This document shows, piece after piece, positions 1 through 22,220 of a DNA stretch of 64,000 nucleotides. The notes beneath the pieces were generated by a model. That model was given only the letters and a program-made list of their open reading frames with translations, was not told the origin of the DNA and searched no databases. The DNA comes from an uncultured Alistipes sp. (GTDB lineage Bacteria; Bacteroidota; Bacteroidia; Bacteroidales; Rikenellaceae). The position numbers and the translations under genes were made by a program. Position 1 is the first letter of the stretch. Every line of letters starts with the position of its first letter. Location: NCBI RefSeq assembly GCF_910580175.1, contig NZ_CAJTXD010000001.1, positions 10,597 to 74,596 of the forward strand. Reading direction: 5' to 3'.

Positions 1-78
1 CTGGGTTTCGGTGTTGAGACCGAAATCGCGGAGCCGCTCGCCCAAAGCGCTGAAAAGTTCGATGGCATGTTCTTTCAT
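1..78 (-). CDS. N-terminal 26 codons of an unidentified protein that continues past the window edge
   Basis: ATG at 78 on the minus strand, open to position 1. Translation is MKEHAIELFSALGERLRDFGLNTETQ. Divergent from the nitroreductase gene and too short for the ORF track. Confidence 0.35.
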   Translation of the reverse strand, partial: MKEHAIELFSALGERLRDFGLNTETQ

Positions 79-201
79 GACGGCAAAGATAATATTTCAG
101 AACAAAAATATGGACTGCGGGACACGTTTCTCTGGAAAGAAATGTTGCTGGCGAGTGAGTGTTGCGCTATTTTTGCTGTTGTCCGGAAAAACGATCCGAC
201 C

Positions 202-804
202 ATGGAAAGAAGTTGCAGAGATGCTTTGTTGCGCCGTCGCAGCTATTATGCGTTGTCGGCCGATTCGCCGATTACCGATGCGCAGATCGAAGAAATCGTG
301 CGTTTTGCAGTCAAGCATGTGCCCTCGGCGTTCAACTCGCAGTCGACGCGCCTGGTACTGCTGCTGCACGAACACCATGCGGCGTTGTGGAAGATCGTGA
401 AACGCACCCTGCACAGCATGGTTGCCGAAGAGGCGTTCGCCCGCACGGCCCAAAAAGTCGATCGTGGATTTGCGGCGGGCTACGGCACGGTGCTTTTCTA
501 CGAAGATACGGCTGTCGTACGGTCGCTGCAACAGCGTTTTCCGCTCTATGCGGGAAATTTTCATGACTGGTCGGAACATACTTCGGCCATGCACCAGCTG
601 GCGGTCTGGACTCTGTTGGAAGATGCCGGTTTCGGGGCGTCGTTGCAACATTACAACCCGCTTATCGACAAGGAAGTGCGCACGAAATGGCACCTGCCCG
701 AAGAATGGCGGCTGATTGCTCAGATGCCTTTCGGATTGCCTGCGGGCGAACCTCCGGTAAAGAACTTCGAACCGGTCGAAGCCCGCATGCGGGTATTCCG
801 ATAA
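202..804 (+). CDS. nitroreductase family protein
   Basis: Part of ORF 67..804. Internal ATG at 202 gives MERSCRDALLRRRSYYAL, with RRS-x-R near the N-terminus and PSAFNSQSTRLVLL typical of the NADH/FMN nitroreductase fold. The upstream 45 codons look non-native. Confidence 0.85.
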   Translation: MERSCRDALLRRRSYYALSADSPITDAQIEEIVRFAVKHVPSAFNSQSTRLVLLLHEHHAALWKIVKRTLHSMVAEEAFARTAQKVDRGFAAGYGTVLFYEDTAVVRSLQQRFPLYAGNFHDWSEHTSAMHQLAVWTLLEDAGFGASLQHYNPLIDKEVRTKWHLPEEWRLIAQMPFGLPAGEPPVKNFEPVEARMRVFR

Positions 805-1098
805 TATTCATCGTTTGTTCTTTCGAAGCCTCTCGGTATTCGTTATATTCGTTTTTTTTGTTTTTGCCGGCGGATTAGTCTTTGTGCCGTCGGGTGCAAC
901 ATGGGTGGTTGCAAGAGTTTGAAAGCATAAAGAGCCTTGCGTGATGATTTATTTCGATTGCTTATAGCGGATTTTTCGGTGTAGCTGCTGCGTTTAGGGG
1001 ATTTTGACCGAGAGAACCGCGATAGTTTCGTAGATTTGGTTCTGGATGACAATTTCATCCATAAGATTAGGTTCGATACAAATACACGTGAAAGAAAT

Positions 1099-1143
1099 AA
1101 CAAAGAGAAGCCGAAAAGAATCTCTTTTCGGCTTCTCTTTGTT
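1099..1143. terminator. perfect 21-bp hairpin, bidirectional intrinsic terminator downstream of the XRE gene
   Basis: AACAAAGAGAAGCCGAAAAGA (1099-1119), loop ATC, TCTTTTCGGCTTCTCTTTGTT (1123-1143). A/T runs lie on both sides. Confidence 0.7.
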
Positions 1144-1187
1144 TCTCAATGTGGCAATTCTTCAAAAATCAATATTTGCTTTATATT

Positions 1188-1415
1188 CTATTTTTCATAA
1201 TCGATGTCATGAAAAAAGTCCTCTAAAGAAATATTGTAGAAATTACATAAAACGGTCAACAAAACTACCGTAATATTTGTCGTTCCCACTTCATACAAAC
1301 CTACGTTAACTCCGGTTTGATCGGTAACCACTTCTTGAGTATAGCCCCGTTCAATCCGCAGCTGCTTTAACCGACGTGCAATAGAGCGTAATAACGTATC
1401 GTTTGTGTGCTTCAC
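1188..1415 (-). CDS. XRE/Cro-C1 family helix-turn-helix transcriptional regulator (75 aa)
   Basis: IARRLKQLRIERGYTQEVVTDQTGVNVGLYEVG matches the HTH_3 pattern (L-R-x-x-x-G-x-T-Q-E-x-x-A/T). Monocistronic, with its own terminator. Confidence 0.8.
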   Translation of the reverse strand: MKHTNDTLLRSIARRLKQLRIERGYTQEVVTDQTGVNVGLYEVGTTNITVVLLTVLCNFYNISLEDFFHDIDYEK

Positions 1416-1493
1416 TTTGAATTTTTTGCAAAAAACACTCCGATTTCCGCTTTTTTGCTCCTATGATTTCGTAGGAATAAAGAAATATAACAC

Positions 1494-1542
1494 TATATTT
1501 GTTGGCGAATTACCAATGTTCATATTAATTATGCTAACTTTG
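1494..1542 (+). promoter_or_regulatory. two plus-strand Bacteroidota -7 boxes facing away from the XRE gene
   Basis: TAtaTTTG at 1494-1501 and TAacTTTG at 1535-1542. The palindrome TTTTTTGCAAAAAA at 1422-1435 is a possible operator. Confidence 0.4.
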
Positions 1543-1549
1543 CGATTAA

Positions 1550-1966
1550 ATAGTTCGGCATAGGCCGACGGACATAATTAAAGAGCAGCAACTCTTTATA
1601 CCGCAACAGAAAAATTAGGAACTTTTCAAAGGTTAAGGTATAAATGTTGCCAGCCCTTGGTATGTTCCGTCCAGAAATGGACGGGACTTGCAAGGGCGCG
1701 GTGCATTTCTTAACCTTGGGTCTTCCTAATACCTTCTGTTCGGAATGTTATCGCGTCCCTTGCTTTTTATTTCAACTCGGGCGCAATTACCAACGCTCAT
1801 TCCGGCGAGTTATGACGTCCGGCGCCCTCCGAACACCCCAAGACATAAGGTTTGTATCCTCGGCTTCCCGAGCCGCGGATGGACGCGGTATGCGGATTTG
1901 TTCGGAAGCCGGATGGCGTCAACCCCAACGACAGATGCTACGGCCCGATACCCCGAATTTTTTGTG
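1550..1966 (+). ncRNA. candidate structured noncoding RNA or long 5' leader (family unknown)
   Basis: No protein-like ORF on either strand. Nested and long-range helices are listed in the findings. Promoter-like boxes lie upstream, and a U-run (AATTTTTTG, 1957-1965) sits near the 3' end. Boundaries are approximate. Confidence 0.3.
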
Positions 1967-2049
1967 CAATTATTTATTGTATTTCAGCAGCTGCCAGACG
2001 CTCGGAAGCGATATGCCGGAGACTTTCGCTTTCAAAACATTCGATCCCC

Positions 2050-2961
2050 ATGACTGAGGTGCCCTATACCATCGGTTTTCTGGGCGGGTTCAGGGATTAT
2101 CGCCACAACTCGGATTTCATTGATAACGCACTCGATTATTATTGTGGGCGGCATGCGCGTTTGCGTGTCTTAGTGTCGCCGACAACCGAGGGCGAAACAC
2201 GCCTTGCAACACGCATTCTTGCAGCCCGGAGAAGTCGCCCGGAGATAGAGGTCGTTTCGGTCATTGCAACCGCACACCTGCGAAGCTATGAAAGAAGCGG
2301 CACGAGTTCGACGGTTACGCATCGCAATCGGATAATTGCAGCATCCGACCACTATGTTGTACTCAATGAAACATCTTGCGGCGGCTATACGGAACAACTC
2401 TACAATCTGTTCGTCGAGCAATGCGATTTGATTCTCTATAATTGCGTGCAGGATGCGAAAAAGGATCGACTGCTGTCGCATGTTCGACAATTTAGCGTTC
2501 CGGTTCCGATAGCGTTTCTTCCGAAGTTTACAGCGGCCGCAACGGACATCGAAAAAGTACTCGATGCAAGTTTGAACTTCATTCGGTCCAATGACTTTCG
2601 CGTGCCGGCCGAGAAACTGCCGCAGGTGTTTCTGTGCAGCTGGACGTCGCAGCCCGGGCAGGAGCGTTATGCCCATATTTCCAGCCTGGATGACGTGGCT
2701 GCCGTATTTCGACTGGACGACAAAAACATACAACTTAAAGTATTCGCCTATGCGCTGGCTGTTCATGCGAACTTCTGGGCCGACCCGGAATGCTGCGATG
2801 CCGACAGTGTGCATGTGCTCTACCGTCTCTTTTGCCGGCAGCTCGACCGGATTGCCCTTGCCCGCGCATCGGGACAACCGTCCGAACGGTTCGAGTTGTT
2901 CGACTTCGACCGACAACTGAAAGATATTTACCGCCAATCGCGCGTGGCCGTCCGACCATAA
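2050..2961 (+). CDS. hypothetical protein with an N-terminal SLOG-like (YpsA/DUF1273-like) domain and an unassigned C-terminal half
   Basis: In-frame ATG at 2050 within ORF 1852..2961 (MTEVPYTIGFLGG...). VLVSPTTEGETRLATRIL and RNRIIAASDHYVVL resemble the G-x-E...A and RN-x-x-hh-x-x-SD-x-hhh signatures of YpsA-type SLOG proteins. The upstream 66 codons are Cys/Arg-rich and not protein-like. Confidence 0.6.
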   Translation: MTEVPYTIGFLGGFRDYRHNSDFIDNALDYYCGRHARLRVLVSPTTEGETRLATRILAARRSRPEIEVVSVIATAHLRSYERSGTSSTVTHRNRIIAASDHYVVLNETSCGGYTEQLYNLFVEQCDLILYNCVQDAKKDRLLSHVRQFSVPVPIAFLPKFTAAATDIEKVLDASLNFIRSNDFRVPAEKLPQVFLCSWTSQPGQERYAHISSLDDVAAVFRLDDKNIQLKVFAYALAVHANFWADPECCDADSVHVLYRLFCRQLDRIALARASGQPSERFELFDFDRQLKDIYRQSRVAVRP

Positions 2962-3078
2962 AATCTCTTGAAATCTATTTATCCATCTCGTTGTCGAAGC
3001 CGATACCAATGCAGAGAATGAGGTAAACAGAAAAAGGGAGCGGAGTGCGAGGCTCATAACCTTGTGCCCGTTAAAATA

Positions 3079-3191
3079 CCCCGGTTTCCTGCCACCCGAC
3101 TTGAAGACCGGGGATGAGGGAACCTATTCATCGGCGGACTGCGCACTCTTGCAATCAAAACGCAGACCACGATGGAGTTCCCTCATTTTTA
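3079..3191 (+). terminator. compound stem-loops ending in a U-run; probable 3' end of the 2050-2961 transcript
   Basis: CCCCGGT (3079-3085) pairs with ACCGGGG (3107-3113). ATGAGGGAAC (3114-3123) pairs with GTTCCCTCAT (3177-3186) and is followed by TTTT. Confidence 0.45.
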
Positions 3192-3410
3192 TAAGTCCAA
3201 ATTAGTCCAACTCGTCTCCGACGAAATCAGCAAGACCTATGCAGAATAGCGATATGCTTTTTCGATAACCGAAAAAGCGATGATAATAACGTATAATTCG
3301 TTATCTTTACATCGAGGTCTTTATCAAGTGAAGGCTATTGTAAGACAGAGCGGAAGATCGGTTAACAAATCGTTACGCGGTAAAAGGCCACCTCGCCGCA
3401 ACTCGCTGAC

Positions 3411-3453
3411 CTACAAAAGAAAAGAGGATCGAATGATCGATCCTCCTGTTTTT
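3411..3453. terminator. bidirectional intrinsic terminator abutting the tRNA-Gly 3' end
   Basis: GAGGATCGA (3424-3432), loop ATGA, TCGATCCTC (3437-3445). It is followed by CTGTTTTT on the plus strand and TTTTCTTTTGT on the minus strand. Confidence 0.7.
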
Positions 3454-3454
3454 G

Positions 3455-3527
3455 AGCGGAAAACGAGACTCGAACTCGCGACCCCAACCTTGGCAAGGTT
3501 GTGCTCTACCAACTGAGCTATTTCCGC
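3455..3527 (-). tRNA. tRNA-Gly (anticodon GCC)
   Basis: Minus-strand sequence GCGGAAATAGCTCAGTTGGTAGAGCACAACCTTGCCAAGGTTGGGGTCGCGAGTTCGAGTCTCGTTTTCCGCT folds as a cloverleaf. The anticodon loop is TTGCCAA. CCA is not encoded. Confidence 0.95.
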
Positions 3528-3568
3528 AAAACAAACCCTCAAAAGGAAAAACTCCTGCTTTGGGACTG

Positions 3569-3576
3569 CAAATATA
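3569..3576 (-). promoter_or_regulatory. -7 box (TAtaTTTG) for tRNA-Gly(GCC)
   Basis: Plus-strand caaatata at 3569-3576, about 40 nt upstream of the tRNA 5' end on the minus strand. Confidence 0.5.
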
Positions 3577-3842
3577 AACCTAAAAATCAAAACATCAAAA
3601 TTATTTGACGAAAAATAAGCGGATGAAAAATATCTACCCAGCAAAATCCAAGAGCCAAACGCCGGTAAACCAAGACGAGCAATAGAATTGCCGGCCAGAT
3701 AAAAAGGATAAAATACTACCCAAACGAGAGAAAAAGACCGGGTTAAAAACAGCCGGGCGGCATAAAATGGAAAAAGGACAAGAGGCCTAAATATTTTTCG
3801 CATGCTCCTTTTAGCTCCCTATTTGGTGGCGTATGTAATGCC

Positions 3843-3872
3843 AAAATCTCCCGAATGATTTCGGGAGATTTT
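3843..3872. terminator. perfect 13-bp hairpin with flanking A/T runs in the tRNA-rho spacer
   Basis: AAAATCTCCCGAA (3843-3855), loop TGAT, TTCGGGAGATTTT (3860-3872). No convincing gene lies on either side. Confidence 0.5.
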
Positions 3873-4049
3873 ACACACACAAACATTGACAATAAGCAAC
3901 AAGGCATGGCCGAAATTCCATTGTTGCAGTTACAAAGATCGGTAAAAGTCGCGGATCGGACAATCGCTATTTTCAGGTATTTTTTCATTCGGATACTTGT
4001 GGAATTTCCTTCTTGCAGAGTTTTGTTTTTGTAATCCGAAAATATCCAT

Positions 4050-4133
4050 TATCTTTGCACAAGTAATTTTAGTGGGGATAGTCGCGTTCCGGGCATCTCG
4101 ATTCGGGTTTTGCTTCGGCTTGCACTATCTTTG
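4050..4133 (+). promoter_or_regulatory. two -7 boxes upstream of rho
   Basis: TAtcTTTG at 4050-4057 and at 4126-4133. The latter is embedded in CTTGCACTATCTTTG, 53 nt before the rho ATG. Confidence 0.5.
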
Positions 4134-4185
4134 CAGACAATCCATTGCCCGATGTCCGTCGGGTTTCAGAAAATCAGAGTTACAT

Positions 4186-5820
4186 ATGCAAGATTTGAAT
4201 GCGCTCCAGGGCAAAAGCATTGCTGAGTTGCGCGAAATAGCCAAGGCGCTTGGGATCGCCGATGTCAGCGTCAAAAAACGCGAATTGCTTGAAAAAATCG
4301 CAGTTACTGCCGGCGGCCCGAATCCGGATGCCGTTTCTGCGGCGCCGGAGGTGTCCGATGCACCTGCCGTGCCTGCCCTCCCGGAGCGTACCCGCAAAGG
4401 GCGCCGACCGCGTTTGGCCGATACCGATGAGAGTGTGTCCGGCGAGTTGTTCGCACGGGCGGATGCAGAGAGCGATCCCCTGCCGGAGCAGCCGCAGCCG
4501 GCGAAGCCTGAGCCAAGCGCCGGAACCGTTGCAGGTGCCCCCGAGCAGCAGGCTCCCAAGCGGCGCGGCCGCAAGCCCAAGGCTGCCGTGCAGGGACAGC
4601 CTCAGGCGTCCTCCCAGTCTCAGGCACCCCAGGTGCATGCCGTGCCGCAGGAGCCGTCCCACGAGCATGCCGCCGCCCAGGAGGTTATTACCAAGGACGA
4701 TTTTGCCGGCGAGATCGAGGGCGAGGGCGTGTTGGAGGTCATGCCCGACGGTTACGGATTCCTCCGTTCGGCCGACTACAATTACCTCAATTCGCCCGAC
4801 GACATCTACGTGTCGCCGTCGCAGATCAAGTTTTTCGGGTTGAAGCCCGGCGATACGGTCAACGGGGCTATCCGTCCGCCCAAGGAGGGAGAGAAGTATT
4901 TTCCGTTGGTGCGTGTGAACGAGATCAACGGGTTGAAGCCCGATTACGTGCGCGACCGTGTGCAGTTCGAGTATATGACGCCGCTCTTTCCGAGCGAGAA
5001 ATTCTGTCTCACAGGCAACGGACACAACAACATGTCGACCCGTATCGTCGACCTCTTCTCCCCCATCGGCAAGGGACAGCGAGCTTTGATCGTCGCCCAG
5101 CCCAAAACCGGTAAGACCATGCTTTTGCAGTCGATCGCCAACGCCATTGCCGACAACCATCCCGAGGTCTACATGATCGTGTTGTTGATCGACGAGCGGC
5201 CCGAGGAGGTAACCGAAATGGCGCGCAACGTCAAGGCCGAGGTGGTGGCCTCTACGTTCGACGAGCAGGCGTCGCGTCATGTGAAGGTCGCCGAAATGGT
5301 GCTCGACAAGGCCAAGCGCATGGTCGAGTGCGGCCACGACGTGGTTATCTTCCTCGACTCCATTACGCGTCTGGCCCGGGCCTACAATTCCGTGCAGCCT
5401 GCTTCGGGCAAGGTCTTGTCGGGCGGTGTGGATGCCAATGCCTTGCATAAGCCCAAACGGTTCTTCGGCGCCGCGCGCAATACCGAGGAGAAAGGCTCCT
5501 TGACGATCATCGCCACCGCGTTGATCGATACCGGTTCGAAGATGGATGAGGTAATTTTCGAGGAGTTCAAGGGCACGGGCAACATGGAGTTGCAGCTTGA
5601 CCGCAAGTTGGCCAACAAGCGTGTCTACCCTGCTGTCGACGTGATCGCTTCCGGCACGCGCCGCGAGGATCTGCTCTTGCCGCGCGAGGTCATGAATCGC
5701 ACCTGGGTGCTGCGCAAATATCTGTCCGATATGACACCTGTCGAGGCTATGGAGTTTTTGCAGAAGCAGATGGCTTCGACCGACAACAACGAGGAATTCC
5801 TCGCAACGATGAACCACTAA
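4186..5820 (+). CDS. rho: transcription termination factor Rho with a roughly 140-aa low-complexity insert in the N-terminal domain
   Basis: ATG at 4186 ([24 protein letters not shown], Rho_N). OB motif [15 protein letters not shown]...IYVSPSQI. Walker A PKTGKT. The C-terminus ends KRVYPAVDV...[10 protein letters not shown]. Confidence 0.95.
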
Positions 5821-5831
5821 TCCGATTGATT

Positions 5832-6602
5832 ATGAAAAAGTTATTGGTAATTGCATGCTGCTTGTTGGCTGCGCGCGATGTTCGGGCCTGGGGCCAGAAA
5901 GGCCATGATGTCACGGCCTATATCGCCGAATGCAATCTGACGCCCGAGGCCGCTGAAAAGATCGACAAGGTGCTGGGCGGCCATTCGTTGGTCTACTATG
6001 CCAATTGGCTCGACAATGCCAGTCATACGCCTGAATATGCCTACTCTGCCACGTGGCATTACCTCAATATCGACGAGGGGCAGACGCTCGAAACAGCGCA
6101 GCGCAATCCCGACGGCGATGTGTTGCAGGCGGTTACCGATGTGGTCGGAAAGCTCAAGAGCGGCAAGCTGCCGCCCGAGGAGGAGACCTTGGCGCTCAAG
6201 ATGTTGATCCACTTGGTCGGCGACATGCACTGCCCCATGCACACCGGGCGGTTGAGCGATCGTGGCGGCAACCGGCGTCCCGTGACGATGTTTTCCGAGA
6301 CTGCGAACCTACACTCCGTTTGGGATTCGGCGCTTCCCGAGGCGGCCCATCGCTGGAGTTACACCGAGTGGCAGGAGCAGATCGACCGCTTGTGCGACGA
6401 CGAGGCGATGCTCGTGCAGGCCGGCGAACCGCAGGATTGGCTTGTCGAGACGCACGAAATTTGCAAGGAGGTTTACGATTTCACGCCCGAGGGAGCCAAG
6501 ATTTCGTACGACTACGTGGCCAAGTATGCGCCCGTCGTCGAGCAACAGTTCCTGCGCGGCGGCTTGCGTCTGGCCCGCTTGTTGAACGAAATCTATCGTT
6601 AA
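5832..6602 (+). CDS. S1/P1 family nuclease, secreted
   Basis: Signal peptide MKKLLVIACCLLA, then mature WGQKGHDVTAYIAE and the HLVGDMHCPMH zinc-ligand motif. Confidence 0.9.
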   Translation: MKKLLVIACCLLAARDVRAWGQKGHDVTAYIAECNLTPEAAEKIDKVLGGHSLVYYANWLDNASHTPEYAYSATWHYLNIDEGQTLETAQRNPDGDVLQAVTDVVGKLKSGKLPPEEETLALKMLIHLVGDMHCPMHTGRLSDRGGNRRPVTMFSETANLHSVWDSALPEAAHRWSYTEWQEQIDRLCDDEAMLVQAGEPQDWLVETHEICKEVYDFTPEGAKISYDYVAKYAPVVEQQFLRGGLRLARLLNEIYR

Positions 6603-22084: not shown

Positions 22085-22220
22085 CTTTTATTTGTCTTTC
22101 GAGGTCTTCGCAATACCTTGCAGCCAAATAAAGAGTAAAGCCCACGCAGAACGTGAGCGTTTACGCCTTACTCTTGGCTGCTTTTGAAAGTTGCGAAGTT
22201 TCGAAAGACAAGAAATAAAG
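22085..22220. other. long interrupted inverted repeat (about 55-nt arms); function unknown
   Basis: The left arm (22085-22138) and right arm (22168-22220) share complementary blocks: GTCTTTCGA, CTTCGCAA, GCAGCCAA and GAGTAA. The apical region is 29 nt. Confidence 0.6.

Follow-up and report, generated by a model that had tools for sequence, protein, structure and literature searches.

A structured RNA with two competing predicted folds upstream of an unannotated Alistipes gene, and its relatives across the Bacteroidales

Given the helix-rich, gene-free interval noted in a 64,000-nt stretch from an uncultured Alistipes sp. (contig NZ_CAJTXD010000001.1, positions 10,597 to 74,596; hereafter the window, whose coordinates are used throughout), we analyzed the interval for conserved RNA structure. 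Window positions 1548-1772 on the plus strand (~225 nt) are a genuine structured RNA, lying 277 nt ahead of an open reading frame (ORF) at 2050-2961 and divergent from a gene encoding an XRE-type helix-turn-helix (HTH) protein. On balance, we favor the view that this RNA is a cis-acting leader that attenuates transcription of the downstream gene or genes, here ORF 2050-2961. This view draws on two conserved folds that exclude each other, one of which ends in a terminator-like hairpin and U-run, and on linkage of the RNA to homologous downstream genes on the same strand.

Comparison of fold stability with shuffled sequences places the structure at one end of the interval. The 1548-1772 segment yields z = -6.83, a value equaled by 0 of 200 shuffles, in contrast to z = -0.81 for 1773-2049, which 45 of 200 shuffles equal; the helix-rich signal is therefore confined to the first 225 nt. 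The initial annotation had proposed a novel noncoding RNA (ncRNA) or long regulatory leader of about 0.4 kb. The structured RNA is real, but its domain spans only 1548-1772, and 1773-2049 is ordinary spacer or the remainder of the 5′ untranslated region (UTR). The entire flagged 500 nt score z = -4.4 against shuffles, and the reverse complement is likewise low. A set of pairings proposed at 1862-1910 falls within the spacer, where the sequence is no more stable than its shuffles and which blastn homologues do not enter beyond ~1790, so this part of the annotation was not borne out.

Coding potential offers no competing account of the region. The plus-strand ORFs at 1644, 1745, and 1852 do exist, but none has a Pfam match, and the minus strand lacks any ORF of at least 60 aa, the longest in the region being 54 and 43 aa. 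That the region might be a decayed pseudogene, or a set of chance hairpins, is effectively refuted. Junk ORFs of 102-137 aa overlap it, as such a reading would have it, but they match no protein family, and the conserved DNA shifts its reading frame between homologous copies, which argues against a decayed gene. The z-score of the domain and a level of covariation far above shuffled and slid controls speak against chance pairing.

The window's RNA belongs to a large family, here called type L, and a second, shorter form, type S, is related to it. Scanning one genome for each prokaryote species with a pattern gave 99 matching genomic stretches and, once duplicates were removed, 112 distinct type L copies, of which 104 make up alignment A1. 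Nearly all matches carry the labels Alistipes, Rikenellaceae, or Tidjanibacter, cultured strains included; Alistipes montrealensis kh20, A. muris DSM 112343, A. hominis New-7, and Alistipes sp. i18-0019-D1 are candidate cultured carriers. Among 401 genomes of the family, blastn places type L in 42, often with two or more copies, and the part that is homologous in related genomes is ~1527-1785 only, that is to say, the promoter and RNA domain; no blastn homologue in these genomes extends past ~1790. Rfam 15 (4227 families) gave no relevant match for window positions 1-6000 at E ≤ 1 or for a further 20 copies at E ≤ 0.1, and a search of the entire window at gathering score returned only tRNAs; further matches in these searches were sub-threshold and spurious. 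With ~110 homologous copies, massive compensatory changes, and no Rfam family covering the region, the proposal of a novel ncRNA or regulatory leader holds.

No type L or type S element was found by blastn in phage and plasmid collections, and viral contigs (IMG/VR) gave a single type L match. Model R1, applied to 150 genomes from other genera of the order, returned no type L copy, a result obtained with strict filters and a model trained on type L that is not evidence of absence. Paralogues inside one genome differ in the variable helices h1 and k described below, as in 'Bacteroidales bacterium A61_54', which has six or more. Tandem arrays of the divergent XRE HTH gene and type L RNA, with a period of ~620-1400 bp, occur at several loci (L003/L011 on G009:C35, L015 on G009:C13, L131, and L104). 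Many type L copies also lie no more than ~300 nt from contig ends in draft assemblies. This placement is consistent with near-identical paralogues breaking the assemblies, such that copy numbers in metagenome-assembled genomes would be underestimated.

The 5′ end of the element is marked by a Bacteroidota -7 promoter box, TAACTTTG, at 1535-1542 (plus strand), within the block TGCTAACTTTGC that is conserved in most copies. The presence of TAnnTTTG boxes just upstream had been pointed out in the initial annotation, and this box matches that description. From its position, transcription would start at ~1548-1552. Hairpin P1 (1555-1568, TCGGC-loop-GCCGA) follows, with four of its five pairs changed on both sides among copies, then a conserved GACAUAA, and then hairpin P2 (1580-1597; AAAGAG/CTCTTT, 1580-1585/1592-1597), which is present in the minimum-energy fold and has an equivalent, AAAGC/GCTTT, in type S relatives. 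Separately, a conserved GGACAUAAC right after P1 is complementary to GUUAUGUC between P4 and P5 (A1 columns 43-54/164-172; window 1571-1576/1661-1666). This pairing lies outside both folds described below and, judged by complementarity, would be a further alternative or pseudoknot pairing.

In the first of the two folds, region X (1603-1636) and region Y (1710-1742) are complementary along their full length via three helices. X holds the 5′ strands of h1 (~1603-1611), k (1614-1621), and h3 (1629-1636), and Y holds the 3′ strands h3′ (1710-1717), k′ (1723-1730), and h1′ (1734-1742). Beyond these, a helix at 1642-1646/1704-1708 leads to the apex (1653-1697), where P4 (1653-1659/1691-1697) encloses hairpin P5 (1664-1672/1679-1687). 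These helices all nest into a single long rod, and minimum-energy folding gives the same structure. The P4 and P5 pairings had been proposed from the window sequence, and their compensatory changes uphold them: in A1, both-side changes occur in all nine pairs of P5 and in two pairs of P4. A second proposed set, linking 1712-1724 to 1840-1852, was not confirmed. Its AACCTT (1712-1717) is part of TTAACCTT (1710-1717), a complement of AAGGTTAA (1629-1636) that takes AAGGTTAA rather than 1840-1852 as its partner in minimum-energy folds, and the associated GTTCGGA (1738-1744) belongs to the 3′ strand of h1.

Covariation in the rod is extensive. In the hypervariable helix h1, five positions in a row each occur as all four Watson-Crick pair types, and helix k (1614-1621/1723-1730) also covaries; h3 was excluded from column-by-column counting because it is too misaligned in A1. 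Across the 46 rod pairs in A1, 92.2% of cells are paired, compared with 82.1% in shuffles and 38-48% with slid partners, and 540 cells show double changes, compared with 168 in shuffles; the observed values were reached by 0 of 500 shuffles. Duplex folding gives the same picture for X and Y as wholes. The mean X:Y energy is -31.7 kcal/mol with a copy's own partner and -21.4 kcal/mol with foreign partners, and in 61 of 104 copies the own partner ranks among the top two binders. It is on the basis of h1, together with h3 by duplex folding, that X and Y are taken to pair over their full length as a nested rod. A pure kissing loop or pseudoknot for 1614-1621/1723-1730 was considered and dropped in favor of this nested arrangement.

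The second fold ends in a terminator-like hairpin and U-run that were absent from the initial annotation. Here stem A, formed by GCAAC + TTATACC (1588-1602) with GGTATAA + GTTGC (1637-1650), closes X on itself. Further downstream, the terminator hairpin (1691-1762) consists of a basal stem (1691-1700/1752-1762) and a middle stem (1704-1709/1742-1747) with region Y as its loop, and a U-run follows at 1764-1772. In the basal stem, CAAGGGCGCG (1691-1700) pairs with CGCG-U-CCCUUG (1752-1762) with one U bulged. The stem and T-run motif is present in 108 of 112 copies.

The terminator-specific helices are mostly invariant or variable on one side only. Stem A is near-invariant in the 104 copies, with covariation only at its outermost pair (AU in 82, GC in 14), and the basal stem is conserved and varies on one side only, by G-U. 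The exception is the middle stem, CAUUUC (1704-1709) with GGAAUG (1742-1747), which has five both-side-changed pairs in three distinct versions. Overall, 91.4% of terminator-fold cells in A1 are paired, compared with 88.9% in shuffles, and double-change cells number 203, compared with 86 in shuffles, with 0 of 500 shuffles as high. By their covariation, both folds are under selection.

The two folds exclude each other. P4 and the basal stem compete for the same GGGC, and rod pairing also occupies the whole of Y and the 5′ strand of the middle stem. Energies in the window are -87.0 kcal/mol for the rod and -77.2 kcal/mol for the terminator-constrained fold, and the mean advantage of the rod across 99 copies is 10.4 kcal/mol. 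When growing prefixes of the RNA are folded, stem A and P4/P5 form first, and the rod displaces stem A as Y emerges, an order that suggests a kinetic decision.

These features would fit together as follows. Transcription from the TAACTTTG promoter would produce a ~220-nt 5′ leader RNA. The rod would serve as the read-through fold, in which the pairing of X with Y sequesters the 5′ half of the terminator. In the alternative fold, stem A would close X while 1691-1700/1752-1762 encloses Y ahead of the U-run, which would favor termination. The choice between the folds would be made during transcription and would set the level of read-through. Because stem A stays invariant across copies whose rod helices drift freely, the stem A region may be the site recognized by a factor, whether protein or small molecule. 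The divergent XRE repressor probably controls the type L promoter. As in an attenuator, a hairpin with a U-run lies downstream of a promoter, and the competing pairing is itself under selection.

The same structural evidence bears on a simpler account, in which the RNA serves as a constitutive, structured 5′ UTR for mRNA protection or processing, a stabilizer element without any switching, and the terminator-like stem is a leaky by-product. A preference of ~10 kcal/mol, on average across the family, for a rod that in the window is also the minimum-energy fold would suit such a role, as would the position of P1 a few bases from the inferred 5′ end and a very stable rod that would resist RNases; a stable processed leader fragment would also account for the deep transcript contig described below. 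This account leaves unexplained why the terminator strand and U-run are so widely conserved, in type S as well as type L, why the middle stem of the terminator has compensatory changes of its own, and why stem A is invariant family-wide. We therefore regard a non-switching 5′ UTR as rather unlikely.

Evidence for a cis-acting role comes from the genes that follow the RNA. The likely regulated cargo in the window, ORF 2050-2961 (plus strand, 303 aa), encodes a hypothetical protein with no Pfam, NCBIfam, or PADLOC match, and its homologues are named only 'hypothetical protein'. Homologues occur in 5 of 150 other Alistipes species genomes. At four of these five loci, model R1 locates a full-length type L element upstream on the same strand, including the locus whose homologue has 30% identity, with RNA-to-gene spacers of ~130-460 nt. 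Within the window's own spacer, 1773-2049, no exact TAnnTTTG box was found by eye. A cis-acting leader is favored because of this linkage in four of five loci together with the lack of an exact promoter box between the RNA and the gene. Across type L copies in general, the genes downstream differ greatly from copy to copy and have no annotation in Pfam, NCBIfam, or PADLOC.

Transcript evidence was drawn from gut metatranscriptome contigs compared with window positions 900-3600, where assembled contigs give neither true ends nor strand. In run X4, a 240-nt contig matches 1518-1757 exactly at a depth of 153.7, whereas contigs on the HTH gene and ORF 2050-2961 have depths of 2-5. In run X8, from the same study, a 320-nt contig covers 1523-1842 at a depth of 32.6, compared with ~4 on the flanks. 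RNA contigs in this one study are thus 8-50 times deeper than those of neighboring genes. Runs X6 and X10 (study P4) cover the flanking genes and have no contig on 1446-1900, which proves nothing. These data are supportive but weak evidence of an abundant RNA whose 3′ end usually lies close to the terminator, with occasional read-through.

The depth of these contigs, ending near the terminator, is also what would be expected of a stand-alone stable ncRNA with its own promoter and terminator, acting in trans or binding protein, to which the position of the cargo is incidental; a rod-shaped sponge or scaffold functionally paired with the XRE regulator would be one example. The conserved U-run, a rod shape and high stability that recall protein-binding RNAs, and minimal tandem units of HTH gene and RNA that carry no cargo, down to 620 bp, all lend this alternative some weight. 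It is harder to reconcile with the same-strand linkage to homologous cargo at four of five loci and with the placement of type S elements close upstream of start codons in the window's own genome (~30-110 nt). Selection on an alternative pairing that destroys the terminator is difficult to explain for a simple small RNA (sRNA), and no conserved single-stranded seed region was seen. We consider a stand-alone RNA possible but doubtful.

Several considerations weigh against transcription attenuation and should be set beside the evidence in its favor. Stem A and the basal stem, on which the terminator fold depends, are nearly invariant and cannot be proven by covariation. With the rod ~10 kcal/mol more stable, thermodynamics alone predicts read-through, and yet a short RNA accumulates; its accumulation would be explained just as well by a stable processed fragment or by a stand-alone RNA. 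The next unit of HTH gene and RNA follows directly, with no cargo gene between, in 4 of 112 copies, which argues for a function of the RNA on its own or for decay of the units. The expression evidence comes from assembled contigs of one study, and two runs elsewhere have no RNA contig.

A further possibility is that the element acts as DNA, as a palindromic repeat, a miniature inverted-repeat transposable element (MITE), or a recombination site, and that the RNA is irrelevant. The element is indeed multi-copy, many copies lie near contig ends, the minus-strand fold has an equally low z-score, and in the window the conserved block is flanked by a 16-nt imperfect direct repeat. Such flanking repeats are not general, however, and no transposase is adjacent. 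The conserved promoter and U-run confer direction, and RNA contigs cover the element. Moreover, the helices contain many G-U pairs, which form only in the plus-strand transcript; at the second position of P4, for instance, 90 of 104 copies have UG. A DNA-level element is, in our assessment, very improbable.

The window's repeat consists of 1508-1523 (AATTACCAATGTTCAT) and 1785-1800 (AATTACCAACGCTCAT), and it brackets exactly the homologous block. Flanking direct repeats were evaluated as a mobile-element signature and rejected, as they are not general and the two flanks of one copy match each other no better than flanks of different copies do; the repeat in the window may be due to chance or be specific to this locus. 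Within 700-3560, direct repeats are limited to two 2-copy families.

The shorter type S elements have the same helix layout. In the window's own genome, model R1 gave two weak relatives. A scan of this genome restricted to the majority AAAC/GACC form of the helix layout gave no match, and a generalized layout was needed; with it, the scan identified five convincing type S elements, compared with one match in shuffled sequence. Their common features are the promoter, P1, a GACAUAU, P2, and a rod with the same AA/ACC internal loop as type L, followed by a 3′ segment able to pair with the 3′ strand of the rod apex and then a U-run. One copy lies in the window at 22094-22209 on the minus strand, with the promoter, P1, GACAUAU, P2, the AA/ACC-loop rod, and GUCCCACG with the U-run, 87 nt before a gene for a 130-aa lipoprotein. 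The other four are at G000:C1:145636-145804(+), C1:185416-185535(+), C5:63007-63234(-), and C8:1853-2001(-) of the same genome, and the genes after them encode three lipoproteins and one membrane protein (an acyltransferase by eye). For all five, the next ATG-started ORF of at least 80 aa starts ~30-110 nt after the element.

Type S is far more widespread than type L. By blastn it is present in 108 of 201 Alistipes genomes and, across the order, in 31 of 301 genomes including the window's own and in 29 of 209 genera; Rfam has no match to it. In alignment A2, comprising 36 type S copies, 95.8% of rod cells are paired, compared with 86.4% in shuffles, and 141 cells show double changes, compared with 39, with 0 of 500 shuffles as high. 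The terminator pairing of type S is conserved but invariant. Of 26 type S copies sampled from other Alistipes genomes, 22 precede genes for lipoproteins and secreted proteins, judged by eye from signal peptides at their N-termini.

Type L and type S may together represent an undescribed, Bacteroidales-wide class of switchable leaders with invariant sensor parts, amounting to a major cis-regulatory device, although we advance this broader idea only tentatively. Sensing would fall to stem A in type L and, in type S, to the invariant rod apex; the signal would be a metabolite or a protein, and the targets would be exported or surface proteins and the prophage or island cargo of gut Bacteroidales.

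Comparison with known systems places the element closest to leaders that switch between a terminator and an antiterminator, such as riboswitches, T-box, PyrR, TRAP, and BglG/RAT. It shares with them a structured leader close to the promoter, two pairings that exclude each other, one of them a hairpin with a U-run, and the accumulation of a short terminated RNA. It differs in that its antiterminator is a ~140-nt rod pairing two distant 35-nt regions rather than a small hairpin, in having many diverged paralogues within one genome, and in having no Rfam match. For T-box leaders specifically, there is no Rfam T-box match, and what lies downstream is cargo lacking annotation. Phage HK022 put, lambda nut, and the leaders of Bacteroides UpxY capsule loci act through antitermination in cis or as 5′ UTRs dependent on NusG paralogues. 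The phage- or island-like setting and the repressor-type neighbor are alike, as would be control of read-through into downstream genes, in contrast to the terminator, which here lies inside the element, and to the lack of an adjacent NusG-like gene.

Other RNAs and repeats resemble type L in fewer respects. Like 6S RNA, it is an abundant, largely double-stranded rod of ~200 nt; in contrast to 6S RNA, it is multi-copy, has hypervariable helices, a leader position, and an alternative terminator fold, and shows no evident central bubble. No Rfam 6S or 6S-Flavo match was found, and the RNA is patchy (42 of 401 genomes). FopS and GibS are multi-copy Bacteroides sRNA families; FopS is ~65-70 nt long, has a single-stranded seed, acts in trans on susC mRNAs, and according to its description has been deposited in Rfam (PMC11697453). 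Multi-copy Bacteroidales paralogues, a TAnnTTTG-type promoter, and an intrinsic terminator are shared with these families, but type L is ~220 nt long, almost fully paired, located in 5′ leaders, and without an Rfam match. Identity with FopS/GibS, a different family of 65-70 nt, was accordingly rejected.

Two published collections were compared by description only and could overlap with the present family. The rAID-1 orphan-immunity arrays contain repetitive intergenic sequences in Bacteroidales (bioRxiv 10.1101/471110). As with those repeats, a noncoding repeat precedes highly variable Bacteroidales cargo, sometimes near a tyrosine recombinase; unlike them, the window has no XerD-like recombinase and the units are mostly single. 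The catalogue of candidate structured RNAs from human microbiomes by Fremin and Bhatt (2021) includes Alistipes-specific multi-copy motifs, with many motifs beside HTH-XRE genes (PMC8040213), and the Alistipes motifs shown there are 46-63 nt, far shorter than type L. For retron msr-msd, IscB/TnpB omega RNA, and IS110 bridge RNA, no reverse transcriptase, RuvC, or DEDD family was found among the neighbors, which are instead XRE HTH proteins, ORF6N proteins, a tyrosine integrase in a few copies, and unannotated cargo. For a type III toxin-antitoxin system (ToxI-like), there is no internal tandem repeat, and the cargo has no PADLOC match.

Judged by Rfam 15 and the literature that could be searched, the sequence family, the very long antiterminator rod, the multi-copy paralogy, and the two subfamilies are undescribed; the principle of terminator versus antiterminator is already known. 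Alistipes and other Bacteroidales are dominant gut bacteria in which few RNA regulators are known, and the present family is large, supported by covariation, absent from Rfam, and built on a testable two-state architecture. Identifying its signal could reveal a new riboswitch or RNA-protein switch and could also explain how variable surface and accessory genes are regulated. The element would in addition be a compact, portable control module for engineering Bacteroidales.

The wider genomic setting of type L combines an XRE repressor with prophage-like or island cassettes of unannotated cargo. In the window, the divergent XRE-type HTH gene (1188-1415, minus strand, 75 aa) matches Pfam HTH_3 at E = 1.6e-5. 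A homologous divergent HTH gene lies upstream in 56 of the 104 copies having enough flank, and in five copies it is replaced by a divergent ORF that resembles a nucleotidyltransferase by eye. ORF6N proteins, which match the PADLOC candidate PDC-S05, are found further upstream in 21 copies, and tyrosine integrases are near five. The sole viral copy (L047, IMGVR_UViG_3300029541_000017) sits among two ORF6N genes, a Bro-N gene, and an S24 (LexA/cI-like) repressor, with a sigma-70-family factor and a PAPS reductase as further neighbors, and we read this locus as a prophage regulatory region.

Two observations concern the surroundings of the element in the window. Between the nitroreductase and HTH genes, 1099-1143 forms a perfect 20-bp hairpin with T-runs on both sides, resembling a bidirectional terminator, and gives spurious microRNA matches in Rfam. 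Downstream, contigs over 2880-3466, noncoding between the stop of the ORF (2961) and a tRNA gene at 3455-3527, reach a depth of 11-15, above the depth of 2-4 on the body of ORF 2050-2961.

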